DNA of 64,000 nucleotides from an uncultured Acidimicrobiales bacterium (GCA_963697385.1 CAVONU010000004.1:963915-1027914); one strand, 5' to 3'; positions 2,811 to 63,380 are shown, numbered from the stretch's first letter. The notes: a model not told the origin generated them from the letters alone. Translations and numbers: made by a program.

Positions 2811-3491
2811 GTGATCTGGAGCGGGGGCGAGGCCCTCGATCCGGCGCGGCTGGCCGGTCTGGCCCGGCGCATCGAGGGGTCCCGGGCCGATGATGCGGCG
2901 GTCCACATCGCCGCCGACTCCGGGCTGGACCACGCGCGGGCCGCCGGGTGGACGGTGGACGTGGGGGTCGGCGATTTCGACTCGGTGTCCGCCGATGGGC
3001 TCCGCCGTGCCGAGCAGGACGGGGTCGAACTGATCCGACACGACGTCGACAAGGAGCAGACCGATCTCGAGCTGGCCCTCAGCCTTGCGGTGGAACGCGG
3101 CGCACGAACCGCGTTGGTCGTGGGGGGTTCGGGCGGCCGCATCGATCACTTCGCCGTCAATCTCGGGGTGGTGGCGTCGCCGACGTACGCGGATCTCCGG
3201 ATCGAGGCGTGGATGGGCGCGGCGACGGTGTGGGTCGTCCGGGGTGAGCGACGGTTCGAGCTCCCACGTGGTGGCCTGCTCTCGCTGGTGCCGATGCACG
3301 GTCCGGCCGACGACGTCGAGACCGAAGGCCTGCGCTGGCCGCTCCGGCGGGAGACCTTGCCCCCCGGTACCGGGCGCGGCCTGTCCAACGTCGTGGACGC
3401 CGGTCCGGTCCGCATCGTGGTCGGTCGCGGTGTGCTGTTGGCCGTCGCCCCGGGCGGCCCGGAGGGAGCGACGTCGTCGCCTTCCTGCTGA
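2811..3491 (+). CDS. thiamine pyrophosphokinase
   Basis: In-frame GTG 2811 within ORF 1737-3491. Motifs VGVGDFDSV and VVGGSGGRIDHFAVNL typical of TPK catalytic and B1-binding parts. Confidence 0.7.
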   Translation: MIWSGGEALDPARLAGLARRIEGSRADDAAVHIAADSGLDHARAAGWTVDVGVGDFDSVSADGLRRAEQDGVELIRHDVDKEQTDLELALSLAVERGARTALVVGGSGGRIDHFAVNLGVVASPTYADLRIEAWMGAATVWVVRGERRFELPRGGLLSLVPMHGPADDVETEGLRWPLRRETLPPGTGRGLSNVVDAGPVRIVVGRGVLLAVAPGGPEGATSSPSC

Positions 3492-13911: not shown

Positions 13912-15011
13912 GTGTCGTCGCGTCATCCGGCCTGCCGGTCGCTCTCGCTCTGGTGATCGCCGTGGTGCTGCTCGCCGCCAACGCGTTCTTCGTCGCGGTC
14001 GAGTTCGCCCTCATCGCCGCGCGTCGCGGCACCCTCGAGGCGCGCGCCGCCGAGGGGAATCGTCGAGCCCGCGCCGCGCTTGCCGCCGTCCGCGACGTCA
14101 ACCTCCAGCTGGCGGGCGCCCAGCTGGGCATCACCATGGCCAGCCTGGGCCTGGGGTTCGTGGCCGAGCCTGCGATCGAGTCGTGGATCGAGCCGCTGCT
14201 CGACGGGATCGGGCTACCGCACGGGGCGGTGCCGGGCATCGCGTTGGCCATCACGCTCTTCCTGGTGACGACGCTGCACATCGTGCTGGGCGAGATGGTG
14301 CCCAAGAATCTGGCCATCGCCGGCCCTGAACGCACGCTGCTCGCACTGGCGGGCCCGTACCGGCTGTACGTCATGATCGCCCGGCCGTTGATCGCGGTGA
14401 CCAACGGCGCGGCGCGGGCCGTGCTCTGGGTCATCCGGGTCGAACCGCGGGACGAGCTCAGCGAGGTGCACACCGCTGATGAGATCGCGTCGATGGTCGG
14501 ATTGTCCCGCGACGAGGGGATCATCGAGGACTTCGCCCACTCCCTGATGGCCGGAGCACTCGATCTGGGCCGGCGCCCCGTGAGCTCGGTGATGATCCCG
14601 TACACCGAGGTCGTGACGGTGCACCGCTGGCAATCGGTCGAGGAGGTCGAGCGGGTCATCGTCACCAGTGGTCACAGCCGCCTCCCGGTCATCGGGCACT
14701 CGATCGACGACGTCGACGGGTTCCTCCACGCCAAGGACATGCTGCAGCTGCCCGAGGTGGCGCGTCAGCATCCCGTTCCGCTCTCGATCGTCCGCCGGAT
14801 GCCGGTGGTGCCGGTCGACGCCGCGCTCGAGGACGCCCTCCGCACGATGCGCCGGTCGCGGCGCCATCTGGCCGTCGTGCGGGATACCGAGGGTGCCACG
14901 GTGGGGTTGCTCTCGCTCGAGGACGTGCTCGAAGCCCTGGTCGGCGACATCCAGGACGAGTCCGATCGTCCCCGGGTCCGCCGCCTCGGCTTGGCGGCCA
15001 ACCGACCCTGA
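13908..15011 (+). CDS. CNNM/DUF21-CBS domain protein (paralog, no obvious CorC_HlyC tail)
   Basis: ATGA overlap with the upstream stop. [16 protein letters not shown], then CBS pair ([26 protein letters not shown]). Confidence 0.85.
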
Positions 15012-15051
15012 CAGGCGCGATCGGGCGCAGGCTCGATACCCTTACCGCCCC

Positions 15052-16185
15052 GTGGCCCGTCTCCTGCGCGTCGCCCTGTGCGCGATCGTGTTGGTGCCTC
15101 TGATGCAGGCGCCCGTTGCGGCTCAGTCAGAGCTGGAATCGGCACGCGCCCGCGCGGCCGAGGCGGTCGACGACTTCCACGAGTCCGAGGAGCGTTTGTA
15201 CGACCTCGATCAGGAGATCTCGCAGCTCGAGACCGAGGTCGCCGAGGCCGAGACCGCCCAGGCCGAGCTCAATGCGGTCGTACAGGAGCTGGCGCTGCGT
15301 CGCTACACCGGCGAGCGGCGACTCGACCTGGGGACGGTCGCCGACGCCAACGACCAGGCGGTCGCCGATGCCCTGGTGGCGGCCGTGCTCAAGACCGACA
15401 ACGACGTCCTCGACGACTTTCGCACCATGAACGAGGACCTCGCCGACGCACAGTCCGCCCTGGACGATCGGCGCGCCGAAGCCGCCGCCGTCCGGGAGGA
15501 GCTGGCCGGCCGGGTCGAGGCGCTCAACGAGGACGTCGCCCGACTCGAGGAGCTCGAACGGATCCGCCTCGAACAGGAGCGCAAGCGACGCGAGGAGGAA
15601 GCCCGCCGGAAGGCAGAGGAGGAGGCGGCCGCCGCTCGAGCCGCGGCCAATCGTGCGTCCTCCGCCGGTGCGTCGTCGTCCAGCGCATCCGGTTCGGGCT
15701 CCTCGGGCTCCTCGGGCTCGTCGGGCTCATCGGGATCGTCCGGCTCCGGAGGTTCGCCGACTCGATCCGCGGCCCCGGTCGCAGCCCCCGCCCCTTCGGG
15801 TGGCGGCTTCGTCTGTCCGGTTCCGGGATCCAGCTTCAGCGACACGTGGGGGGCGTCCCGATCGGGCGGGCGCAGCCACAAGGGCGTCGACATGATGGCG
15901 CCGTCGGGAACGCCGGTCTACGCGCCGGTCGGGGGCACGGTGAGCCACCGCTCCAATCGGCTCGGCGGGCTCTCGTTCCATCTCAACGGCGACGACGGCC
16001 ACTACTACTACGGCACCCACCTGTCGGCCTACGGCAACGGTGGACGGGTCAGCGCCGGCACGGTCGTCGGCTACGTGGGCAACAGTGGCAATGCCCGCTA
16101 CACCGCGGCCCACCTTCACTTCGAGGTGCACCCCAACCATGGCGGGCCGGTCAACCCGTACCCGTACGTGCGACCGGTCTGCTGA
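15052..16185 (+). CDS. secreted coiled-coil M23 metallopeptidase (paralog of 3562-4989)
   Basis: GTG 15052. Signal-like [26 protein letters not shown], coiled coil, Ser/Gly linker. M23 motifs HKGVDM and [21 protein letters not shown]. Confidence 0.85.
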
Positions 16186-44723: not shown

Positions 44724-46949
44724 GTGGCCACCGTCACCCGCGTCCTGCCGTGGCGCCGCAACGCCGACCCCGCCGCCGTTCAGGTTGCTCCGCTGGTGGC
44801 GGCGTTCCGCGCCCATCACGGGCACAAGCCCGACGACCGGATCGAGCGGGCCTATCGGTTGGCGTCGGAGGCGCACGAAGGCCAGTTCCGCAAGTCGGGT
44901 GAGCCGTACGTGCATCATCCGCTGGCGGTGGCCCACATCGTCGCCCAGCTGGGTCTGGACGAGACCACCATCGCTGCGGCGCTGCTCCACGACTCGGTCG
45001 AGGACACCGGCATCGAGCTCGACGACCTGCGCCAGCAGTTCGGTGACGACCTGGCCGAAATCGTCGACGGAGTCACCAAGCTCGAGCGGGTCAAGTTCGA
45101 CACCAAGGAGGCGCAGCAGGCCGCCACCATGCGAAAGATGCTGGTGGCGATGGCCAAGGACCTGCGGGTCATCATCATCAAGTTGGCCGACCGACTCCAC
45201 AACCTGCGGACCATCGCCGCCCTGCCCGACTGGAAGCAGACCCGTACCGCCCACGAGACCCTTGATGTCTATGCGCCGCTGGCCCACCGGCTGGGCATGC
45301 AGGAGATGAAGACCCAGCTCGAGGATCTGTCGTTCGCGGCCCTGCACCCCAAGCGATACGCCGAGATCGATCACATGATCCAGACCCGGTCACCGGAGCG
45401 CGACCTCTACGTCGAGCAGGTCGTGGGCATCGTGCAGGAGCGGCTGGCGCAGAGCAACGTCGATGCCGAGGTGACCGGTCGGCCCAAACACCTCTGGAGC
45501 ATCTACGAGAAGATGGTCGTGAAGGGTCGGGCCTTCGACGACATCTTCGATCTCGTCGGGATCCGGATCATCGTCTCGAACCTGCACGGCTGCTACGGGG
45601 CGCTCGGCGCCATCCACGGCCTCTGGAAGCCGGTTCAGGGCCGGTTCAAGGACTACATCGCCCACCCCAAGTTCAATCTGTACCAGTCCCTGCACACGAC
45701 GGTGATGGGGCCGCAGGGCAAGCCGCTCGAGGTGCAGATCCGCACCTCCGAGATGCACGGCCGGGCCGAGTTCGGGGTCGCGTCGCACTACGCCTACAAG
45801 GACAGCGACGTCACCGCCGACGGCACCTGGTTCGACCGCATCCTCGAGTGGGAGTCAGAGACCGAGGACCCCGGCCACTTCATGGCGAACCTCAAGCTGG
45901 ATCTGGACCAGGACGAGGTCTTCGTCTTCACCCCCAAGGGCGAGGTCGTGACCCTTCCCGTCGGGTCCACGCCCATCGACTTCGCCTACACGATCCATAC
46001 CGAGGTGGGTCACGCCTGTATCGGCGCCCGGGTGAACGGTCGGCTGGTCCCCCTGGAGACACAGCTGGTGTCGGGTGACACCGTCGAGATCTTCACGGCC
46101 AAGGGGCACGCCGGCGGGGGACCGTCGAGGGACTGGCTGGACATGGTGGCCACCCACCGGGCGGCCAACAAGATCAAGCAGTGGTTCTCGCGGGAGCGTC
46201 GTGAGGACATGGTGGCCGCAGGCCGCGACGACGTGATCAAGGCGATCCGTCGCGAAGGACTGCCGGTCCAGCGGATCACCAAGGGTCCGATGATGGCGGA
46301 CCTGGCCGAAGGCCTGAACTACGCCGATGTCGAGGCGCTGTTCGCCGCCGTCGGTGAGCGTCATGTGTCGGCCAACTCGGTCGCCGCCCGCGCGGCGAAG
46401 GCGCTTCGGGGCGGTGAGGACGGGAGCGAGGAACAGATCCCCACGACCGCCCGATCTCCCCGGAAGGGCCGACGGACCCGAGCCACCACCCACGGGGTGC
46501 ACGTCGAGGGCCTCGACGACCTTCTGGTGCGGCTCTCCAAGTGCTGCACGCCGGTGCCGGGGGACGAGATCATCGGTTTCGTCACCCGCGGACGGGGTGT
46601 CTCGGTGCACCGGGCGGACTGCGCCAACGCCGTCTCGCTCAGCGACGGGCAGGCCGATCGGGTCATCGACGTCGAGTGGGACGACGACAGCGAGGGAACG
46701 TTCGTGGCGTCGATCGAGATCAAGGCGCTTGACCGCTCCGGCCTCTTGGGTGACGTCACCACCACGCTGACCGATCATCACGTCAACATCGTGGCCGCCA
46801 ACACCGCCACCGGCGGCGACCGGGTGTCGACGATGCGGTTCGAATTCGAGCTGGGCGACCCCGGCCATCTCGACTCGCTGATCGCCGCGGTCAAGGGCAT
46901 CGAGAGCGTCTACGACGCGTACCGGGTGGTGCCGGGCAAGGGCGGGTGA
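44724..46949 (+). CDS. relA: bifunctional (p)ppGpp synthetase/hydrolase (long RSH)
   Basis: HD domain HHPLAVAHIVAQLGLDETTIAAALLHDSVEDT, synthetase RPKHLWSIYEKM...DLVGIRII...YQSLHTTV, TGS (VFVFTPKGEVVTLP), C-terminal ACT-like domain ending YDAYRVVPGKGG. Confidence 0.95.
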   Translation: MATVTRVLPWRRNADPAAVQVAPLVAAFRAHHGHKPDDRIERAYRLASEAHEGQFRKSGEPYVHHPLAVAHIVAQLGLDETTIAAALLHDSVEDTGIELDDLRQQFGDDLAEIVDGVTKLERVKFDTKEAQQAATMRKMLVAMAKDLRVIIIKLADRLHNLRTIAALPDWKQTRTAHETLDVYAPLAHRLGMQEMKTQLEDLSFAALHPKRYAEIDHMIQTRSPERDLYVEQVVGIVQERLAQSNVDAEVTGRPKHLWSIYEKMVVKGRAFDDIFDLVGIRIIVSNLHGCYGALGAIHGLWKPVQGRFKDYIAHPKFNLYQSLHTTVMGPQGKPLEVQIRTSEMHGRAEFGVASHYAYKDSDVTADGTWFDRILEWESETEDPGHFMANLKLDLDQDEVFVFTPKGEVVTLPVGSTPIDFAYTIHTEVGHACIGARVNGRLVPLETQLVSGDTVEIFTAKGHAGGGPSRDWLDMVATHRAANKIKQWFSRERREDMVAAGRDDVIKAIRREGLPVQRITKGPMMADLAEGLNYADVEALFAAVGERHVSANSVAARAAKALRGGEDGSEEQIPTTARSPRKGRRTRATTHGVHVEGLDDLLVRLSKCCTPVPGDEIIGFVTRGRGVSVHRADCANAVSLSDGQADRVIDVEWDDDSEGTFVASIEIKALDRSGLLGDVTTTLTDHHVNIVAANTATGGDRVSTMRFEFELGDPGHLDSLIAAVKGIESVYDAYRVVPGKGG

Positions 46950-47104
46950 GCTACGACCAGGTCACCGTGGCCCGCCCCACCGACGCCCTGGAGGCCGCGA
47001 TCGACGGCAATCTTCCTGGCCGAGGCCGCCTGTCGAGTTCGGCCGAGCCTGCCTTTGCCCCGGTGCTAGCTTGGCTCGCGGTCCGCTAGTGGGGGTATGG
47101 GATA

Positions 47105-47635
47105 GTGCGAGTTCGGGTCTCTGTTGTGTTGCTGGCCGCCGCTGTGGTCCTCGTCGGTGCGTGTTCGGACGATGACGACGACACCGACGGGGCGGCAACG
47201 ACCACGACCACGACCAAGACCGAGGCCACCACTGCCAGCGGTGACGACGGTGGTGGCGGATCGGTCAGCGTCGTGCTGGCGGACCCCTTCGCCGGGCGGG
47301 TGGAGTTCGCCGTGGAACCGGATCCGTCGTCGGCCGTGGCTGGCAAGGTCGAGCTCGTGGCCGAGAACGTGGGCGGGGACGTTCACGAGTTGGTGATCGT
47401 GAAGGGTGACGATCCTGCGTCGCTTCCGGTTGACGGAAACGGCGTGGTGATCGAGGACGATCTCCCCGCGGGCGACTTTGTTGGCGTGATCCCACTGGTC
47501 GATCCCGGTGCCGAAGCGTCGGCGTCGTTCGATCTCGATGCCGGGAGTTACATCCTCTTCTGCAACATCTTTACGCTCGGAACCGGCGACAGCCACTTCC
47601 AGGAAGGCATGGTGAGCACTTTCACCGTGACCTAA
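47105..47635 (+). CDS. lipoprotein with cupredoxin_1-like domain (cassette 1)
   Basis: GTG 47105. Lipobox VLVGACS, acidic/Thr linker. Candidate type-1 Cu ligands DVHELV ... SYILFCNIFTLGTGDSHFQEGM. Confidence 0.6.
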   Translation: MRVRVSVVLLAAAVVLVGACSDDDDDTDGAATTTTTTKTEATTASGDDGGGGSVSVVLADPFAGRVEFAVEPDPSSAVAGKVELVAENVGGDVHELVIVKGDDPASLPVDGNGVVIEDDLPAGDFVGVIPLVDPGAEASASFDLDAGSYILFCNIFTLGTGDSHFQEGMVSTFTVT

Positions 47636-47718
47636 CCGATCCTGGACGGGCTCGGCGAACTGCTCGGCTCCACCAGCCCGCGGAGAGATCCGAATCGCCA
47701 TGGCCATCCAGTAGGGAC

Positions 47719-47872
47719 GCGTTGACCGGGACTCGCCCCGGGCGTCGAGAGGATAACTGTGGGCACAGCGCTCTCCTCGCCACCGCGCCACGCCTGGGAT
47801 GTCCGGGATGAGCACAGCGCATACCCCCAGATAGACGACGCGTATCGGGTGGTGCCGGGCAAGGGCGGGTGA
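47719..47872 (+). repeat. relA-3'-end repeat unit A (arm plus 36-nt core 47837-47872)
   Basis: Core GACGCGTATCGGGTGGTGCCGGGCAAGGGCGGGTGA is 35/36 identical to relA 46914-46949. Arm ATAACTGTGGGCACAGCGCT...GAGCACAGCGCATACCC is shared with units B and C. Confidence 0.9.
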
Positions 47873-48003
47873 GCGCAAGCCCTGACCTCCCTTAGGGTTC
47901 TCGCCGGGTTGCTCGTCGGCAGGATCGAGCACAGCGCTCGTCGAGGTGATACTTGCGGGAACAGGCACCTAGCCGATCGTCTTGCGGGTCAAGTGGAGCG
48001 CGA

Positions 48004-48537
48004 TCAAACCAATGTCCCGTCGGCGGCTGCCAGCCTCGATGAGTTCCAGGTAGTCCAGCTAGCCGGGGGTGGTGACGTATGAAGGACCTGGATCTCGAGC
48101 AGCTCGCTTTCCGGGGCGTGAACTGCGGCCTGACGGGCGTCGAGCTCCGCCCGGACGCGGATGATGAGCTCGTCGAGCGTCGCCTGGGCGATCACGGGAT
48201 CGCGGTCGGACACCTCGACCAGCATCAGAGGGTCCTTGTCGTCGACGGTGATGGTGTAGTCGGGGGAGAAGCCGGCGGCCTCGAGCTCGGCGCGGACCTC
48301 CGCGGTGCCGACGATGAGCGCGAGGTTGGCGAGGGTCGCCTGGCGCGGGACGGTCGGCCCGTCAGCCGACCCGCTCTGGAAGAGGACGCCGTCGCTGGCG
48401 GCGATCACCATCGACGCGCTGGCCCGATAGTCGCGGTCGCCGCGACCTGCGACGAACATCGCGGCGAGCGCGAAGCCGGCCAGGACGGGTACGACGATGT
48501 ACCAGCGCCGCCCGAGCGCCTTCGCCGACTCGCTCAT
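48004..48537 (-). CDS. hypothetical membrane-anchored protein, possibly a truncated Wzz/chain-length-determinant-like N-terminal half (cassette 2)
   Basis: ATG 48537. MSESAKALGRRWYIVVPVLAGFALAAMFVAG (N-terminal TM), then a soluble alpha/beta-looking region. No second TM, and the C-terminal ~25 residues look like junk. Confidence 0.45.
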   Translation of the reverse strand: MSESAKALGRRWYIVVPVLAGFALAAMFVAGRGDRDYRASASMVIAASDGVLFQSGSADGPTVPRQATLANLALIVGTAEVRAELEAAGFSPDYTITVDDKDPLMLVEVSDRDPVIAQATLDELIIRVRAELDARQAAVHAPESELLEIQVLHTSPPPASWTTWNSSRLAAADGTLV

Positions 48538-48646
48538 GTCCACTGTGATCCCGTCGCTCAGAGTGGTGTGACTACTCGTACCTAAGGCAGATCGCCGGGG
48601 CACCCGCAAACCTGCCGGTGCCCCGAGGGTACCCGCAGGGGTGAAG

Positions 48647-48869
48647 GGTGGGCCCTCGCCCCCGGCCAACCGGGACTAGCGAGTGGCACCGCAACTGGTC
48701 AGCGTCGTCTGCCTGCGGGCTTTCGCTGCACAACCACCTAGTTCGGCAGGGGCCTGAATGGCGGGCCCGCCGACGCGTTCATGTCGCCATGTCGCTCGGC
48801 GGGTCCCGCCTCAGGTCGGTGGTGGCTCCCAGTGGTGCCCCTCGCCCCCGGCCACCCGGGACCAGCGAG
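48647..48869. repeat. pair of ~36-bp direct repeats 187 bp apart inside a 460-bp non-coding stretch
   Basis: GGTGGGCCCTCGCCCCCGGCCAACCGGGACTAGCGAG (48647-48683) versus GGTGCCCCTCGCCCCCGGCCACCCGGGACCAGCGAG (48834-48869). Confidence 0.8.
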
Positions 48870-48928
48870 CCGTCGGCCGGTCCAAGAGGCCACGGCTGTC
48901 ACGCGATGAGGTCAACGTGCCGTCAGGG

Positions 48929-49120
48929 GCGTTGACCACCGTCTCCTGCTCGTCCTCGCCGACACGATGAGCACGCTCGCCCGGACCGGGCGTCGAGCGC
49001 ATAACTGTGGGCACAGCGCTCGCGCGGAAACCCGCTCAGGTAAGGCAAGTCGGTGGTGGGCACAGCGCACACCCTCAGATAGACGACGCATACCGAGTCG
49101 TGCCCGGCAAGGGCGGGTGA
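48929..49120 (+). repeat. relA-3'-end repeat unit B (arm plus 36-nt core 49085-49120)
   Basis: Core GACGCATACCGAGTCGTGCCCGGCAAGGGCGGGTGA is 32/36 identical to relA, and all 4 differences are synonymous third positions. The arm is as in unit A, with a ~45-nt insertion after GCGTTGACC. Confidence 0.9.
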
Positions 49121-49332
49121 CCAGCCACCAGCTGTCGCTGGAGAGCCGGTACGATTCCCGCCCGAATCACCGGCGACCGCCGGTCCCACCACCGACTCGG
49201 GAGCTCGCCCTCGGGATCGTCCCCCTCCTCCCCCCGTGACCGCCGGGCTCATCGACCGACGAAGCCGCTCCCCGAATCCCGACCGATCGGCTGACCCACT
49301 AAGTCTCGGAGAGCTCTCATGACTCGTACAGG

Positions 49333-49854
49333 ATGATGACCGAGGACTTCGATACCTGGTATGCCGACCTCCGCCCCGCGATGGGTGTCGCGTTGGCCGC
49401 GTGGTGCGGCGACGCGTCGGTCGCCGCGGACGCGCTCGACGAGAGCTTCGCCAGGGCGATCGAACGGTGGGACCGGGTGCGTCGCCTCGATTCGCCGGCC
49501 GGTTGGGTCTGGCGGACGGCCACCAACATCGTGCGTCGCCGTGAGCGTCGCCATGCGATGGAAGCACGTCTCCTTCGACGCCAGTCGTCACCGGACGCGG
49601 GTGCACCCGATCGTGTCGAAGACGATCTCGACCTGCGCCAAGCCCTTCGCGCCCTGACCGAGCGGCAGCGTACGGCCGTTGTCCTGTACTACGTGGCTGA
49701 TCTTCCGGTCGCCGAGGTCGCGCTCGCCATGGGTGTGGCCGACGGCACGGTGACCGCCACCCTGCACCAGGCGCGCCAGCGCCTGAACGACGCACTCGTT
49801 CCCGCTCCATCCGGCGCACCAGTCACCGTCACCTCCGAGGGAATGGACCCATGA
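49333..49854 (+). CDS. ECF (group IV) RNA polymerase sigma factor (cassette 3)
   Basis: Region 2-like DALDESFARAIERWDRV...AGWVWRTATNIVRRR and region 4 LTERQRTAVVLYYVADLPVAEVALAMGVADGTVTATLHQARQRL. Confidence 0.85.
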   Translation: MMTEDFDTWYADLRPAMGVALAAWCGDASVAADALDESFARAIERWDRVRRLDSPAGWVWRTATNIVRRRERRHAMEARLLRRQSSPDAGAPDRVEDDLDLRQALRALTERQRTAVVLYYVADLPVAEVALAMGVADGTVTATLHQARQRLNDALVPAPSGAPVTVTSEGMDP

Positions 49855-51137
49855 CAAACCTCGAAGAACGTCTCCGCTCGTTGCGGACCACCACGGTCCC
49901 GCCCGGCCCGGAGCCCCACGTCCTCCAGGCGACAGCCGATGGCCGGCGCCGCCGCCGACGGCTCGCCGCAGCCGGCTGGGTCGGCGCGATCCTGATCGCA
50001 ACGGTCGCAATACTCGGATCGCTCGATGCTGACGACAAGGTGCGGGTGGTCGGCGACCAGCCTCCGACCTCGGACGAACCGTCGCCTGGCGAAACGCCGG
50101 CGGTGCGGACCCTCGGCGGACTCGAAGGCGTCACGGTCGAAGTCGATCCGACCCGTGATCTCCTCGATGGCGCGACGCTGGACATTCGGATGTACGGCCT
50201 CGACCGGCTGACGGATCCGACCATCGTGCTGTGCGCGGGCGACGTCCGGGAGGACACCGTCTCGGACCGGTGCGAACTCCGACCGCTCGACCGCCTGTCG
50301 ACCAGCGACAGCTACGTCGAGGTCGCAGCTCGTCGAACGGTCGAGGCGCGACGCGTGATCCACCTCGCCGAGCCGTTCGACTGTGCGACTGAACCGGCGG
50401 GCTGCGTCCTGGCGGTCGGCAACAATGACCTCCCGGCCCGGGCCGTGCTGACACCGCTGACCTTCCGCCCGGTCCCAATGCCCGAGCCGGTGGTCTGGGT
50501 GGAGCCCGACAGCGGGCTGCACGATCTCGATCCAATCACGGTCCGCGCCACGGGTCTCCGGGCCGCCAGCTCGTACTCGATCCAGATCTGCACTGCGGGC
50601 GAGGACAGCGTGTGTGACCACGTCACCGATTCCGCCAGGTTCGACGAGCAGGGAAACGTGGAGACCGACACGTTCGTCCGCGCCGCCCTGTACACCGAGA
50701 AGGGCCGAATCGACTGCACCGCCAGGCCTTGCGTGGTCGCCCTGAGAGAGGACTTCGACCGTCCGGCAGTCGCGACGCCGATCACCTTCGCCGAAGATGC
50801 GGTCGCGCCCGTTCCTGCCCTCGAGCTCGATCCCCCCGGGCCCTACGTCGACGGCCAGACGATCACGGTGCGGGGTTCGGGCTTTCTCCCCGGGTTCGAC
50901 CTCACCGCGAAGATCGGACAATGCCCGGCCGACAAGGACACCGCGGTCGAGCTGAGGTGCGAGCCCATTCTCGAGAAGATCATCGTGGACGCCGACGGTC
51001 GCTTCACGACCCAACACACCCTGTCGGAGACCTTGATGGTCACCGACTCGTGCACCGATGAGCCGGGTTGCGTCCTCGGCTGGGTCCTCCACCACGGTCC
51101 CATCGTCGCGATCGCCGAGCTCACGTTCGAGGACTGA
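49851..51137 (+). CDS. single-pass membrane protein (anti-sigma position) with three extracytoplasmic 4-Cys, neocarzinostatin-like domains
   Basis: ATGA overlap with the sigma gene. RRRRRRLAAAGWVGAILIATVAILGSL TM. Three ~100-aa repeats, each with two Cys pairs (for example C..GEDSVC ... DCTARPC; QC...LRC ... SCTDEPGC). Confidence 0.6.
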   Translation: MTNLEERLRSLRTTTVPPGPEPHVLQATADGRRRRRRLAAAGWVGAILIATVAILGSLDADDKVRVVGDQPPTSDEPSPGETPAVRTLGGLEGVTVEVDPTRDLLDGATLDIRMYGLDRLTDPTIVLCAGDVREDTVSDRCELRPLDRLSTSDSYVEVAARRTVEARRVIHLAEPFDCATEPAGCVLAVGNNDLPARAVLTPLTFRPVPMPEPVVWVEPDSGLHDLDPITVRATGLRAASSYSIQICTAGEDSVCDHVTDSARFDEQGNVETDTFVRAALYTEKGRIDCTARPCVVALREDFDRPAVATPITFAEDAVAPVPALELDPPGPYVDGQTITVRGSGFLPGFDLTAKIGQCPADKDTAVELRCEPILEKIIVDADGRFTTQHTLSETLMVTDSCTDEPGCVLGWVLHHGPIVAIAELTFED

Positions 51138-51369
51138 CCGGGGCGGTCTCCTTCGGGGTCCGCCGGCAGAGTTGACCGGCCATCGTCGAGGCGATCTGCG
51201 TGATTCGATGGCGGTGATCAGGGGTGAGTCGGGTCCGCGGCGTGTGCGACCTCTCCGGGGCTGATGGAGGGAGGCGTGGGGTGTGGCGCGGCTCGGGTAC
51301 CCTGCTCTCGGAACGAGGCGGATCGGATCGCGAGGAGCGCACGTTGGCGGCGACAGTGGATTCGCCTGC

Positions 51370-52266
51370 ATGGCGATAGGGACTCGATTCAACGACGTCC
51401 AGTCGTTCGACGGAACGAGCCTGGCCTGGACCTCCTCCGGTGACGGCGACCTCGCCGTGGTCCTGGCCAACGGAATCGCCTGCACCGACACGTACTGGAC
51501 CTTCCTCTACCCCTACCTCGCGGAGCGCGGGCACAAGGTCGTCTTCTGGGACTACCGGGCGCACGGGCGCTCGGGGCTTCCGGTGAACCCCAACGAGATC
51601 ACGCTCAGCTCCCACGCCCGCGATCTCCTGGCCGTCGCCGGCGCCGCCGGAGTGGAGCGCGCGGTCCTCGTCGGTCACTCGATGGGAGTGCAGACAATCC
51701 TCGAGGCGTATCGCATGTCCCCTTCACTCGTCGCCGGCCTCATTCCGGTCGCGGGCCCCTACGAGCACCCGGCGAAGACGCTCTACGGACAGCCGATCTG
51801 GCAGTATCTCTTCCCGTTCATGGAGCTGTCGGTGATGCCGGTCCCGTGGCTGACCAGGGCGGCGTGGCGTTCGCTCACCGAGCAGGGCGACCTCATGTAC
51901 TGGTCGGGACGCATGGGACGGCTGATCGGTGGAAGAGCCTCCAGGGAGCTGATGGCCGAGTATTTCGCTCACCTCTCGGAGCTCGACCCGCTGATCTCGT
52001 TCCGGATGGCCAAGGCGATGGGGGATCACTCAGCGAAGGACCTCCTTCCCGAGATTGAGGCGCCGACGCTCGTCCTGGCCGGGGCCAAGGACGTGATGAC
52101 GCCCCCGATGGTGGCCGAGGAGATGGCGGAGAGCATCCCGAACGCCCGCCTCGAGATCCTCTCGAAGGGGTCGCACACCCTGCCCATCGATGAGCCGAAC
52201 CGCGTCAACCGCCTCGTCGAGGAGTTCGTCACCGAGGTCGAACAGGCCGAACGCGCGCGCATGTGA
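51370..52266 (+). CDS. alpha/beta-fold hydrolase (cassette 3)
   Basis: ATG 51370. WDYRAHGRSG, nucleophile elbow GHSMG, C-terminal GSHTLPIDEP. Confidence 0.8.
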   Translation: MAIGTRFNDVQSFDGTSLAWTSSGDGDLAVVLANGIACTDTYWTFLYPYLAERGHKVVFWDYRAHGRSGLPVNPNEITLSSHARDLLAVAGAAGVERAVLVGHSMGVQTILEAYRMSPSLVAGLIPVAGPYEHPAKTLYGQPIWQYLFPFMELSVMPVPWLTRAAWRSLTEQGDLMYWSGRMGRLIGGRASRELMAEYFAHLSELDPLISFRMAKAMGDHSAKDLLPEIEAPTLVLAGAKDVMTPPMVAEEMAESIPNARLEILSKGSHTLPIDEPNRVNRLVEEFVTEVEQAERARM

Positions 52267-52398
52267 GCGGAGACTGCCCCCTCGCAGCGCCCCGCAGCGG
52301 CGCGATCAGCCAAGTCCCGTCGGAGCCGTTGAGCGGCTTCCTCGCATGTGGCCGCAGCCGGGGTGGCTGGCGAGATCTCGACCGATCCTCGCGCCGAC

Positions 52399-52516
52399 AA
52401 CTGTGGGCACAGCGCTTGGGCGGAACCCCGATCTGGCAAGGGGAGTCGGGGGTGTGCAGAGCGCACACCCCGGGATGGGCGACGCGTACCGGGTGGTGCC
52501 GGGCAAGGGCGGGTGA
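52399..52516 (+). repeat. relA-3'-end repeat unit C (arm plus 36-nt core 52481-52516)
   Basis: Core is 36/36 identical to relA 46914-46949. Arm AACTGTGGGCACAGCGCT...GTGCAGAGCGCACACCCC. Perfect hairpin GGGGTGTGC-AGAGC-GCACACCCC at 52449-52471. Confidence 0.9.
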
Positions 52517-52649
52517 CCGCGATCCATTGCCCTGCCTCGGGAATGGCCTGGCTGCCTCGCGCCGTCGGGACGCGGACCTTTGCCCCTGGGAGTGAACGCC
52601 TACCTGCGGGAAGATGGTGGGTGCCACCGATCATGGGAGGGGGTCGAGG

Positions 52650-53255: not shown

Positions 53256-53404
53256 AGGCGTCGGCGACATCGTTGGGCAGTGGAGGTTGGGGGAGTGATG
53301 GGGCTTCTGGCTCGGGACGTACCCCTGGAGGCGATGTCCTGCCGGACGGGGAGTGATAGGGGAGCGTCGTCGTGCCCGGCACGGGTGGCCGAGCCGGATC
53401 CCGC

Positions 53405-59281: not shown

Positions 59282-60418
59282 TCAGCTCGACGAGCCGAGC
59301 GACGCGGCGAATTCCTTCTGAACGTGTGACATGCCCGCAACGTCGAACGCCCCGGGGGAGCCCGCCCTGACGGCGCGATCCGACTTCGGGTCGAATCCCA
59401 ACTCCGCTCGGACCTCATCGACGGGGCGGTCGGCGAACGCGTGGTAGTCGACCTCGAGGAGGTCGTTCCCCAGTCGATCGCACAGGACCCGGCCGCGCCT
59501 CAGAGCGTCAGCGATCCGGATGTGCATGTCGGGGCTGTCGAGTCGACGCTCCTGGAGGTCACCGGTGAAGAACCCCGCATCGGCCACGTACCCCGTCTCG
59601 AACAGGCCGACGAGGGTGGCGAGCCATGCGAAGCCCTTCGGGTCGGGGTCAGCCCTTCCGATGAGCGCAAAGACCTCGAACTCGCCATTCAGATTGGTTC
59701 CATAGTCGGCCAACACATGCACGAAGTCATGCTGGGCGAGATAGGCCGACGCCCCGCCGATGGATCCCGGGAGGCCGAAGCCCCGACTCCGGTACATCTC
59801 CCACACCGACCGGCCGAGCGTTTCGCGAGGCAACTCGGCGAAGGCGAGCCACCGCTCGGCCAGCGGCGCATCCTCGACGCCGGCCGACAGCTGGTGTTCG
59901 AGCCGGACGCTCGTCTTGAGCTGGTCCATCCGGGCCATTTCCCAGTGCTCGGCGAACCCGCTGTGATGCAGATCGAGCCAGGCGAGGCCGAACCCTCCCT
60001 GCGCGTAGCGTCGTGCGACTCGGACGAACTGGTCGTCGACCCCCATGGCCCGCGCGTAGGCGGCGACCCGGCGAGCGACGACCGGCGGGATCGGGCGAAG
60101 GATCAGCTCGCCCAACACCATGAGATGGGCAACCCGCCGGCGGAAGTCTTCAGGACGGTCGGTGAGGGCATCGGCGAGCGACTCGGCGGACAGCGGATCG
60201 AGGGAGCCGAGGTCGGCGGAGACATCCACGAGCGCCTCCAAGACCGCCTGCAGGAGGCTGATCTGCACGGGCTCCAGTCCACCCTCGGGTTCGACTGCGG
60301 TCGCGACACCGCGTGCGATGAGTGTCCCTTCGTCGACCGGGACGGTCCCGCCCGGTGAACCTGCTGCACCCACGTCGCCCCCCGTCAGCGGTGGAATCTC
60401 CTGTTCCATCACGAGCAT
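59282..60418 (-). CDS. hypothetical protein with Coq4-like HDxxH-x11-E motif
   Basis: ATG 60418. AQHDFVHVLADYGTNLNGEFE matches the Coq4 family zinc-ligand motif HDxxH(x)11E. Confidence 0.5.
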   Translation of the reverse strand: MLVMEQEIPPLTGGDVGAAGSPGGTVPVDEGTLIARGVATAVEPEGGLEPVQISLLQAVLEALVDVSADLGSLDPLSAESLADALTDRPEDFRRRVAHLMVLGELILRPIPPVVARRVAAYARAMGVDDQFVRVARRYAQGGFGLAWLDLHHSGFAEHWEMARMDQLKTSVRLEHQLSAGVEDAPLAERWLAFAELPRETLGRSVWEMYRSRGFGLPGSIGGASAYLAQHDFVHVLADYGTNLNGEFEVFALIGRADPDPKGFAWLATLVGLFETGYVADAGFFTGDLQERRLDSPDMHIRIADALRRGRVLCDRLGNDLLEVDYHAFADRPVDEVRAELGFDPKSDRAVRAGSPGAFDVAGMSHVQKEFAASLGSSS

Positions 60419-60518
60419 AGGACTTCCCGCCGGTCGCTCGGTTCGCTCGTCTCTGCCCGCCGGGAACGGCCCGACCGCGCCAGCGCCGGATCGTCGCAGG
60501 CCTGGCAGAATCGGGTCC

Positions 60519-63380
60519 CTGAAGTACCAAGCCTTCATCTCCTACAGTCACGCCGCCGACGATGACCTGGCTCCTGCGCTCCAGCAGGCCCTCCATCGCT
60601 TTGCGAAGCCCTGGTATCGCATGCGCGCCCTGCGCGTGTTCCGTGACAAGACCGGGCTTTCGGCCTCGCCCGAGCTGTGGCCCAGCATCGAAGCCGCGCT
60701 CCGCGAGTCGGAACACCTGATCCTGCTCGCGTCCCCGCGAGCCGCAGGGTCGGAGTGGGTGGAGAGGGAGATCGACTGGTGGCTCGAGCACCGCTCTCCG
60801 TCCACGCTGTTGATCGCGGTGACCGAGGGCGACATCGCCTGGGGCGAGCAGGGCGATGGGTTCGACCCGACGCAGAGCAGCGCCGTGCCCGTGGTGTTGC
60901 TCGACGCGTTCCCCGCCGAGCCGCTGTGGGTCGACTTCCGATGGGCGGACGCGAACGCGCGGCTGTCGACCGACGACCCGGCCTTCGCCGATGCGGTCGC
61001 CGACCTGGCGGCACCGTTGCATGGTCGTTCCAAGGACGAGATGATCGGCGAGGATGTCCGGCAATGGCGCCGGACCCGTCGGGCCGTCACCGGGGCGGTC
61101 GCCGGGTTGGCGTTGCTCGCGATCGCAGCGACCGCCGCAGCGGTGTTCGCGTTCGACCGTCAACGGGAGGCCGAACGACAGCGCAACGTGGCGGTCGTGG
61201 CCCGGGAAGCCGAGGCCGAGCAGCGCGTCGAGGCCGAGACCCAGGCGTCGCTGGCGCGGTCCCGGCAGTTGGCGGCCGAGGCGCAATCCTTGGCTGACGA
61301 CGAGCTGGACCTGGCGCTCCTCCTTGCCGTCGAGAGCTACGAGGCGTCGCCGACGTCCGAGGCCAGGGCTGTGCTGTTGGACACGACCCGTGCGGCCCCC
61401 TCGTTGGTGCGATTCCTGGCAGGCCACGAGCATCCTGTGCGCGCCATGGCGTCCGAGACCGGTTCCGGATCGCTCATGTCGGTCGATTGGGAAGGGGAGG
61501 TCTGGGTCACCGATCTTCAACACGGAACCTCGGAGCGACACGAGGTGCCCGGGTTCGACACCGATCGGGCGCCGACGCCGCGACCGGGCGGCGACGGTGT
61601 GGGGTTCATCGACTCAGACGGCCAACTCCGGCTCTGGACAATCGGTGCGGACCGAAGCGAGGCCGTGGGCTGGGCGCCGGTCCTGCCGCCCGACTCCACC
61701 TTGGGATTCAGCTCGGACGGTCGGTACATCGCCGCCGTCAGCACCGTCGACCCGTGGTCGACCTATGTGATGGAGATCGAGACCGAGTCGGTGTCGATCC
61801 TCGCCGGGCCCGGCCACGGACCGCAGGGCGTCAGTCTCCAGACCTTCCTGGGACCGGCCCGCGTCGCCTTCAGTCCGGACGGCCGGTGGCTCGCCGTGGT
61901 CGACGAGCTCGGGGGGCTCGAGGTCCGGGACCTCACCACCGGTCAGCTGTTCGAGGTTGGCCAGGCCACGTCCATTGCATTCAGTCCCGACTCGACGGCG
62001 ATCGTGGTTGCCTCCGTGGGTACCGAGGTGTACGTGCTGGCTCTCCCCAGCATGGAGAGGACCGCCATCAGAGAGCCGGTCGACCCGGGGTCCACGCTCG
62101 ACCTGCAGCCGTTGGCGTTCCGGTCGGACGGCGCCGCCTTCCTGCTCGGCTCCTCCGACGGGTCGGTGCGAGCGTGGGCGTGGCCTCTGGACGCAGCAGA
62201 GCCGGACGTGATCGGTCGCACGAACGGCGGGGGTCGGGTGATGACCCTCGCGTTCGCCGACGACACGACGGTGCTGGTCGCCGACGAAGGTGGCTCGATC
62301 GAGCAGTGGGACCTCGAACGGCCCGCCACGTCGGGTCACGCCATGAGCGGCGAGGTTGCCCGGGTGGGCGCGGTAGCGGTCTCGCCCGACGGCGGTCTCG
62401 TCGCGGCAGGTGGCTGCGAGTCTCCGGCTCCCGAGCTCCCACCCAACCAATACGAAACATGTGTCGGTGCCGTGTGGATCGAAGCGACGGCCGGTGGTCC
62501 GGGCACCCTGCTGTTCCCCGGAGGCGGCGAGGTGATCGCCGCGGCGTTCACGCCGGACGGTCGCATGCTGGTGACCGGAAGCTGGGACACACCGGTGGTC
62601 GCCACCGATCTCGCCACCGGAATCAGCGAGGTGATCTCCGATCGCCCTGCGGTGGATCTGGCGGTCAATCCGGTGAGCAGCGACGTCGCGTTCGTGGGAC
62701 TCGATGGCTCGTTGCAGGTGACTTCGATCTCCGGAACCGGCGTCGAGCTCCGTGCGCCACCGGACGACCTGGGCGCCGAACTGCGCGGAGGCTTGGCATT
62801 TTCGCCTGACGGGAAGGAGCTCTACGTGGCCTTGGGTCGGGGGACGGTGTCGAGATGGGATCTCGACACCGTCACCGAGACGACGGTGATCGAGCTCGGC
62901 GAGGAGGACCTCGTGGACATGATGGACCTCGCCGTCAGTCCCGACGGCAACACCCTTGCTGTGACGTGGTCCGATGCTGGCGGGGACCCCATGATCCAGC
63001 GGTACGAAATCGAGAGTGCGACCGAGTCGTTGCCGGCGATCACCGATCGCCGATTCCTGGGCGGCATGGGGTTCACCCCGGACGGGGCGAGTCTGGCGTA
63101 CTCCTCCAACCGAGGTCTCGTGTTGTGGGACGTCGATCGCCACAATCCGATCGGTCTGCCGCTCGAGCCGGGCTCAGCGGCCCGCCACGCCGTCGCCGTG
63201 GGCGGACCTCCGGAGGCGCCGATCGCGGTGCAAGCCGACGTGAACGGGGCCACGTGGTGGCGCTTGGCGGACGACCACCTCATCGAGGTCGCGTGTGCTC
63301 GGGCCAACCGGACGATCGAGGACAGCGAATGGAGTCGATTCGCCACGTCGGCCGACGAGCCCAGTGTGGCCTGCACCTAG
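60519..63380 (+). CDS. TIR domain - single TM - coiled coil - multi-blade beta-propeller protein
   Basis: KYQAFISYSH...SEWVEREIDWW (TIR). RQWRRTRR plus AVTGAVAGLALLAIAATAAAVFAF (TM, about 61084-61152). At least 10 FSPDG-type blades. No in-frame ATG/GTG/TTG between 60420 and the TIR core, so the start is set provisionally at CTG 60519. Confidence 0.75.
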   Translation: MKYQAFISYSHAADDDLAPALQQALHRFAKPWYRMRALRVFRDKTGLSASPELWPSIEAALRESEHLILLASPRAAGSEWVEREIDWWLEHRSPSTLLIAVTEGDIAWGEQGDGFDPTQSSAVPVVLLDAFPAEPLWVDFRWADANARLSTDDPAFADAVADLAAPLHGRSKDEMIGEDVRQWRRTRRAVTGAVAGLALLAIAATAAAVFAFDRQREAERQRNVAVVAREAEAEQRVEAETQASLARSRQLAAEAQSLADDELDLALLLAVESYEASPTSEARAVLLDTTRAAPSLVRFLAGHEHPVRAMASETGSGSLMSVDWEGEVWVTDLQHGTSERHEVPGFDTDRAPTPRPGGDGVGFIDSDGQLRLWTIGADRSEAVGWAPVLPPDSTLGFSSDGRYIAAVSTVDPWSTYVMEIETESVSILAGPGHGPQGVSLQTFLGPARVAFSPDGRWLAVVDELGGLEVRDLTTGQLFEVGQATSIAFSPDSTAIVVASVGTEVYVLALPSMERTAIREPVDPGSTLDLQPLAFRSDGAAFLLGSSDGSVRAWAWPLDAAEPDVIGRTNGGGRVMTLAFADDTTVLVADEGGSIEQWDLERPATSGHAMSGEVARVGAVAVSPDGGLVAAGGCESPAPELPPNQYETCVGAVWIEATAGGPGTLLFPGGGEVIAAAFTPDGRMLVTGSWDTPVVATDLATGISEVISDRPAVDLAVNPVSSDVAFVGLDGSLQVTSISGTGVELRAPPDDLGAELRGGLAFSPDGKELYVALGRGTVSRWDLDTVTETTVIELGEEDLVDMMDLAVSPDGNTLAVTWSDAGGDPMIQRYEIESATESLPAITDRRFLGGMGFTPDGASLAYSSNRGLVLWDVDRHNPIGLPLEPGSAARHAVAVGGPPEAPIAVQADVNGATWWRLADDHLIEVACARANRTIEDSEWSRFATSADEPSVACT

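Follow-up and report, generated by a model that had tools for sequence, protein, structure and literature searches.

The stretch of DNA considered here, 64,000 nucleotides (nt) long and referred to below as the window, belongs to an uncultured Acidimicrobiales bacterium (GCA_963697385.1, CAVONU010000004.1:963915-1027914) and harbors relA as the last gene of a series in the order thrS ... ruvCAB, queA, tgt, yajC, secDF, relA, as had been stated in a first reading made from the sequence alone (the sequence-only reading). Downstream of relA lies an array of small gene blocks bounded by direct repeats of the 3' end of relA itself. The corresponding tail of the RelA protein, DAYRV[VL]PG[KQR]GG, is kept across Acidimicrobiales (the RelA of Actinomarinicola tropica shares 72% identity with that of the window) and takes the form DAYRVVPGKGG in the window. 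The last 12 codons of relA (46914-46949) represent the putative core of an attachment (att) site and are called the core below; the base composition is uniform along the array.

The 36-nt end of relA recurs three times downstream in direct orientation, with one, four and no mismatches and with core-to-core spacings of 923, 1248 and 3396 nt; both the positions and the counts given in the sequence-only reading were reproduced, and shuffled sequence yielded 0 matches. A further, decayed copy was recognized at 53369-53401 (28 matches of 33, whereas 100 simulated windows reached 25 at most), bringing the number of relA ends to five, that of relA included, so that each block is bounded by direct repeats with the 3' end of the target gene. 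Since an independent assembly (L001, whose contig ends within block 3 at window position ~51182) contains the same array, near-identical except for 1-nt indels, the array is no assembly artefact. The gene content of the blocks (Table 1) is as described before, except that the label “cupredoxin-like” given to a lipoprotein finds no Pfam support.

Table 1. Features of the relA locus and of the array downstream of it (window coordinates).
Feature	Coordinates	Strand	Details
relA, target gene	44724..46949	+	741 amino acids (aa); Pfam HD_4, RelA_SpoT, TGS, ACT
Block 1, cargo region	46950..47735	+	176-aa lipoprotein gene 47105-47635; left end without P' sequence
Unit A, left arm and displaced relA core	47736..47872	+	motif 1 47755-47772; motif 2 47810-47820; core 47837-47872 (TAC>TAT)
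Right arm (P') after unit A	47873..47951	+	third motif GAGCACAGCGCTCGTCGAGGTGATA at 47927-47951
Block 2, cargo: membrane-anchored protein, 177 aa	48004..48537	-	
Unit B, left arm and displaced core	48984..49120	+	motif 1 49003-49020; motif 2 49058-49068; core 49085-49120 (four synonymous variants)
Block 3, cargo	49333..52266	+	extracytoplasmic function (ECF) sigma 49333-49854; anti-sigma-like 49851-51137; alpha/beta hydrolase 51283-52266 (Pfam)
Unit C, left arm and displaced core	52380..52516	+	motif 1 52399-52416; motif 2 variant 52454-52464; core 52481-52516, identical to relA
Block 4, cargo: lipoprotein, 213 aa	52614..53255	+	
Fifth, decayed core and start of right arm	53357..53401	+	deletion, K>T, stop lost

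Each intact downstream core forms the right end of a longer unit of ~139 nt (47736-47874, 48984-49122 and 52380-52518). The left ~100 nt of each unit bear no relation to relA and hold two GCACAGCGC motifs: the 18-mer AACTGTGGGCACAGCGCT is invariant among the units A, B and C and is followed by a second GCA(C/G)AGCGCA exactly 40 nt further on, while a third motif is found ~55 nt past the stop after some of the copies only. Mean pairwise identity is 0.93 in motif 1, 0.58 in the spacer, 0.85 in motif 2 and 0.86 in the core, with 73-82% identity between the arms of different units. With the relA end as the core, conserved arm motifs and diverged spacers, the repeat unit has the anatomy of an att junction. 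Local alignment of the right arm with the left arm revealed no significant similarity; what counts instead is an exact 13-mer at the orthologous position.

The unit was detected only at this locus and in its close relatives. Within the window, the 18-mer occurs in the three units only, and 185,579 species genomes returned 13 hits to it, which is the chance level, none accompanied by the second motif. The left arm is absent from 80 relA loci of more distant Acidimicrobiia, and no second core was seen in the 33 of these 80 loci where the stop could be placed. Confinement of the 18-mer to the three units and absence of the left arm from the 80 other relA loci argue against a dispersed repeat of the repetitive extragenic palindrome or miniature inverted-repeat transposable element type. 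There was no match to the unit by blastn in phage and plasmid collections; scans of viral contigs with the two-motif pattern and with a degenerate relA tail retrieved nothing, and a looser pattern matched an unrelated phage gene. An additional decayed unit suspected at 51184-51290 proved unsupported (z <= 1.6).

A repeated unit with conserved motifs might alternatively be a functional RNA or a regulatory element, e.g., a terminator, a small RNA or an ECF promoter, which was duplicated together with the relA end. Motif 2 does show a local dyad of 8 pairs, one of them covarying, and inspection by eye revealed an ECF-sigma-promoter-like stretch, GGAA(A/C)C-N17/18-GTC (also read as GGAAC-N17/18-GTC), in the spacers of unit B (49025-49060), which precedes the ECF sigma operon, and unit C (52421-52456), which precedes the 213-aa lipoprotein gene; unit A is devoid of it. 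However, the units fold no more stably than their shuffled versions (z between -1.5 and +0.5), their consensus structure shifts as sequences join the alignment, no Rfam family matches the units either at the gathering threshold or at E <= 1, and scans for promoter-like and terminator-like sites found none. Moreover, this explanation leaves the copying of a coding tail unaccounted for, and we regard it as very improbable. An attC-like hairpin was likewise rejected, since the folds are no better than those of shuffles and the consensus structure is unstable.

The array was then compared with six further loci from members of the RelA clusters, with RelA proteins 89-99% identical. In line with the sequence-only reading, the arrays vary in their content among these loci. 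The locus L015 (RelA 99% identical) has block 1 and unit A in common with the window but diverges at window position 48025, continuing into a different block of 8.7 kb closed by a decayed end unit (Y>C, stop lost). The locus L098 (87% identical at the nucleotide level) differs in its cargo, with a half unit, a unit that is inverted and has one extra nt inserted within its core, and a complete unit (P>L, K>T) that precedes a DUF3303 gene; in L099-L101, a single DUF3303 block ends in a wrecked closing unit. In L103, another block is followed by a unit (K>R, G>S) and then by the hydrolase of window block 3, abutting a PD40 gene, with neither unit C nor the lipoprotein of block 4. This hydrolase, 90% identical to that of the window at the nucleotide level, stands directly after a unit and without the sigma pair. 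Finally, L016 (RelA 89%) possesses one core only, followed by different genes and no further units.

Two details of the relatives' units are recorded beside these arrays. In L098, a stretch of ~870 bp (14925-15836) is inverted, with one breakpoint situated exactly past motif 1 (half unit 14925-14967) and the other marked by an inverted motif-1-like ACCGCTGTCCCACCC; the remainder of the unit lies inverted at 15836-15723. In the L103 unit (3360-3430), motifs 1 and 2 share one A>G change (GCACGGCGC twice), which suggests that the two motifs may evolve in concert, via one binding protein or conversion.

Block 1 is shared by the window, L001 and L015 alone. In L103, L098, L017 and L102, where this block is absent, relA, the core and the right arm are contiguous, and the third motif is found ~55 nt past the relA stop as G(A/G)GCACAGCGCTCGTCGAG..GATA. 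In the window and L015, the right arm stands not after relA but after unit A, and the sequence following unit A in the window is homologous to the post-relA sequence of L098, L103, L017, L102 and, in a decayed form, L016. The single core of L103 aligns both with the relA end and with copy A, its left flank resembling relA and its right flank the sequence past copy A; therefore, block 1 is an insertion with duplication of the core. The earlier proposal that elements entered one after another at the 3' end of relA by site-specific insertion, each bringing a replacement gene end, is thereby supported by a precise insertion relative to four other loci. Junctions composed of left arm, core and right arm, such as those at window unit A and at the last unit of L098, are what tandem elements of the same family would be expected to produce.

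The alleles of the core tell a similar story. All five differences between the window copies and relA are third-position and synonymous, as recomputation showed again, and genuine relA alleles in the clade also differ in a synonymous manner only (GCG/GCA, CGG/AGG/CGC, GTG/GTC, CCG/CCC). Three of the four variants of copy B (GCA, GTC and CCC) are real relA alleles of L098, L016 and L103. In L015, relA carries CGG and the displaced copy AGG, the majority allele of relA. These matches support the view that the cores of copy B and of L015 copy A may once have been read as RelA tails. The L015 alleles are those expected if the crossover took place 5' of codon 4, within the ~10 nt that begin the core, and we infer that strand exchange falls within these ~10 nt. 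The synonymous-only pattern noted in the sequence-only reading did not survive a larger sample, in which six of the ten displaced copies have suffered missense changes, a frameshift or deletion, or loss of the stop. Copies thus decay once displaced, and purely synonymous differences characterize the youngest ones. A diversity-generating retroelement was rejected as the source of the variants: Pfam revealed no reverse transcriptase, and the differences (C>T, G>A, G>C) are not adenine-specific.

Most of the variation among the relatives could alternatively be ascribed to a hotspot of deletions and of homologous recombination of the ordinary kind, with the units acting only as homology patches left by one or two ancient integrations. 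Under this explanation one would readily understand the lack of unit C and the lipoprotein in L103, where no core is left, the different genes of L016 without further units, the inversion in L098, and the return of synteny at the same DUF2505 gene in the window, L016 and L098. Yet the arms of the units are only 73-82% identical and the cores carry alleles of different relA lineages, which fits several independent arrivals, and block 1 is a clean core-to-core insertion. As the main source of the strain differences, such recombination appears quite unlikely.

The enzyme that could have performed the insertions is not encoded nearby: a Pfam search of the ~56 open reading frames (ORFs) of the full window detected no recombinase, be it an integrase, resolvase, transposase or relaxase, just as the sequence-only reading had it, and a tRNA scan of the window revealed no tRNA genes. 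Candidates came from more distant relatives, where the first large ORF past relA was inspected in 20 of the 66 loci that extend at least 1.2 kb beyond it. In two of these 20 Acidimicrobiia loci, L037 and L070, a tyrosine recombinase gene begins 50-110 nt past the relA stop on the same strand. The two integrases, 58% identical to one another, combine PF00589 with a SAM-like N-terminal domain. Their relatives in IMG/VR are encoded by ten contigs (45-52% identical), mostly at contig ends and adjoining tRNA genes or tRNA 3' halves; one of these contigs, L120, is a phage with HNH, large terminase (TerL) and portal genes. The left end of L120 (1-125, GCTCTCTGACCTGGG...) resembles the sequence after the relA stop of L037 (2223-2310) and L070 (1811-1860; TCTGAACTGG), so this phage may also reside at relA, its contig being cut at the junction.

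The link between these integrases and the array of the window is provided by the arm motif. GCACA[AG]CG[CT][TC] is located 38-111 nt before the integrase gene in L121, L122, L123 and L128, and in L121 and L128 a second copy occurs 106 and 118 nt further left, across a tRNA-fragment core; in the window, motif 2 and the third motif are separated by 117 nt with the relA core in between. The sequence (A)GCACAGCGCTCGT is common to the right arm of the window and the integrase-proximal arm of the phage relatives at 12-13 of 13-14 positions. The phage-relative loci had been chosen by protein similarity only and not by the motif, so the motif match constitutes an independent link. In addition, L098 and L103 exhibit ATGGAGCC or ATGGACCC ~30 nt past the right arm, followed by cargo, and the integrase of L121 starts with ATGGAGCC; it is possible that these strings are the first codons of a lost integrase gene.

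Taken together, these observations suggest, with a probability of about 0.7, that phage-type integrative elements with the 3' end of relA as their bacterial attachment site (attB) left the stack of remnants now found downstream of relA, each deprived of its integrase by deletion and resembling cis-mobilizable elements (CIMEs). According to the proposed mechanism, the ~38 nt at the end of relA would serve as attB for elements with a phage-type tyrosine integrase. In their own site, attP, a core identical to the relA end would be flanked by a left arm bearing two GCACAGCGC motifs and by a right arm bearing the third motif, beyond which the integrase gene would follow. On integration, relA would gain its last 12 codons from the element as a new working RelA tail, and the former tail would come to lie past the left arm, at the distal end of the element; further arrivals would displace the older elements downstream. 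Later deletions would strip the integrase and most of the element, leaving 0.9-3.4 kb of cargo closed by the left arm and the old relA tail, and the blocks would be small because of such deletion. We infer that the L037/L070 integrase family made these particular junctions and that the blocks lost their integrases through deletion. The sequence-only reading had resorted to integron-like logic or to a capture mechanism that it could not name; neither is needed in view of the tyrosine integrases directly past relA in two distant relatives and of their phage homologues with the same arm motif and spacing.

Several observations weigh against this interpretation. A tblastn search with ten integrases detected no integrase remnant in ~45 kb of arrays (E > 0.1); therefore, at least three or four independent clean losses have to be assumed. 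An element combining the exact left arm, core and right arm with an integrase was not found in searches of genome, viral, phage and plasmid sequences. The hosts of the L037/L070 integrases are distant, with the C-terminal region of RelA 54-56% identical, and neither of the two 3-kb contigs reaches as far as a second att site. With 12-13 of 13-14 nt, the arm motif in common is short, the cargo genes are not phage-like, and blocks 1 and 3 display no right arm at their left ends. In L103, the hydrolase meets the next gene without a leftover core, so processes beyond site-specific recombination also reshape the array.

Alternatively, the blocks might be working cassettes that never carried an integrase, acquired and rearranged at the relA end through a dedicated recombinase whose gene lies elsewhere in the genome; the locus would then be an integron-like platform with relA as its attachment site. 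The blocks are small, none of six arrays contains an integrase or its remnant, and the motifs and cores are kept while the spacers diverge. Furthermore, the unit A copies of two sister strains differ inside the core only, hinting at recent exchange there, and three short-read contigs break 3-208 nt past relA, as if the co-occurring strains differed (L017, L102 and L119 stop 208, 65 and 3 nt past the relA stop, respectively; these breaks fit strain heterogeneity as well as assembly-breaking repeats). On the other hand, conservation of the motifs can stem from the active life of the elements, half of the displaced cores are damaged by missense changes, indels or loss of the stop, the genes lie on both strands, one block comprises three genes, and there is no conserved attC-like hairpin. 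Moreover, the right arm resembles an integrase-proximal arm and may be followed by an integrase start codon, pointing to lost integrases. Such a platform retains a minor but appreciable chance of being the correct explanation.

A related question is whether the remnants, once formed, could still move, with a recombinase supplied from elsewhere, either resident or from a phage of the same family, excising the integrase-less blocks and reinserting them at the relA end. The motif conservation (0.93 in motif 1 vs. 0.58 in the spacer) may date from the active life of the elements; we see only a small chance of continued mobility. If true, the locus would represent an exchangeable cassette platform with the coding end of an essential stress gene as its entry site.

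Regarding the cargo, the lipoproteins of blocks 1 and 4 were considered as paralogues, which comparison did not bear out, and small genes beside the right arm, considered as excisionase candidates, turned out to encode a secreted protein. The anti-sigma-like protein of block 3 (49851-51137, + strand) features neocarzinostatin-family domains (PF00960) in two stretches and hence an unusual extracytoplasmic part. For the hydrolase and the DUF2505 protein, exact look-up returned no record. A stretch of ~700 nt without a clear gene separates the block 2 gene from unit B and includes a 31-nt direct repeat with 94% identity (48653-48683 and 48839-48869, 186 nt apart). Further downstream in the window, a gene at 60120-63380 (+ strand) encodes a 1086-aa protein with TIR_2/ThsB_TIR at residues 139-234 followed by many WD40/PD40 repeats, which looks like a defence or NLR-type protein; the end of this gene is overlapped by an ORF with an RHH domain.

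Among the known systems, the closest counterpart is the family of ICESt1-type elements, integrative and conjugative elements (ICEs) residing at fda in Streptococcus thermophilus, where CIMEs and their accretion in tandem at the end of a protein-coding gene have been described (PMC5704250). CIMEs have lost their integration and transfer genes and become stacked by further site-specific integrations into the att site of which the gene end forms part (PMC5704250); the relA array resembles them in having blocks without integration and transfer genes piled up at the 3' end of a protein gene. Unlike at fda, the host is an uncultured Acidimicrobiales bacterium, the target is relA, and all of the blocks are integrase-less and very small (0.8-3.4 kb, with one of 8.7 kb); the integrases related to the relA case look phage-type rather than ICE-type. 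In tycheposon islands of Prochlorococcus, newer arrivals push older ones inward, and degenerate remnants and extra partial copies of the target are present in a hypervariable island (bioRxiv 10.1101/2020.12.28.424599). The stacking of remnants and the leftover target copies are common to both systems, but tycheposons target tRNA genes and many of them retain integrases, whereas the relA array has a protein gene as its target, with the last 12 codons replaced at each event, and no integrase left.

The temperate-phage loci L121, L122, L123 and L128 share with the array an integrase related to the relA-adjacent ones and the arm motif GCACARCGYT, which flanks the core on either side at a distance of 106-118 nt; from the proximal motif it is 30-40 nt to the start of the integrase gene. 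Their attP overlaps the 3' half of a tRNA gene; they are intact elements with phage genes and a tRNA-fragment core, in contrast to the relA-end core of the array. In integrons, too, small gene blocks are arrayed next to a constant point of entry, and every block terminates in a recombination site. In contrast to integrons, the relA array lacks an adjacent IntI and attC-like hairpins, its blocks are of mixed orientation (block 2 is on the minus strand) and include one of three genes (block 3), and its identity with the entry site extends over 38 nt instead of a 7-nt box. Overall, the relA array would exemplify a mode of assembly already known for variable gene islands, implemented at a new target gene in uncultured Acidimicrobiales, and does not reveal a new recombination mechanism. 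A full-text search of the literature covered here found no paper describing the relA end as an attachment site.

If this interpretation is correct, the 3' end of relA would be an attachment site for integrating elements in Acidimicrobiales, and the locus would show how a small hypervariable gene islet is assembled in an uncultured lineage. The displaced tails would then form a record of earlier RelA C-termini, and the incoming elements must bring working last 12 codons. In practical terms, the locus may be useful as a marker of strain-level variation and is also a source of contig breaks in short-read assemblies.

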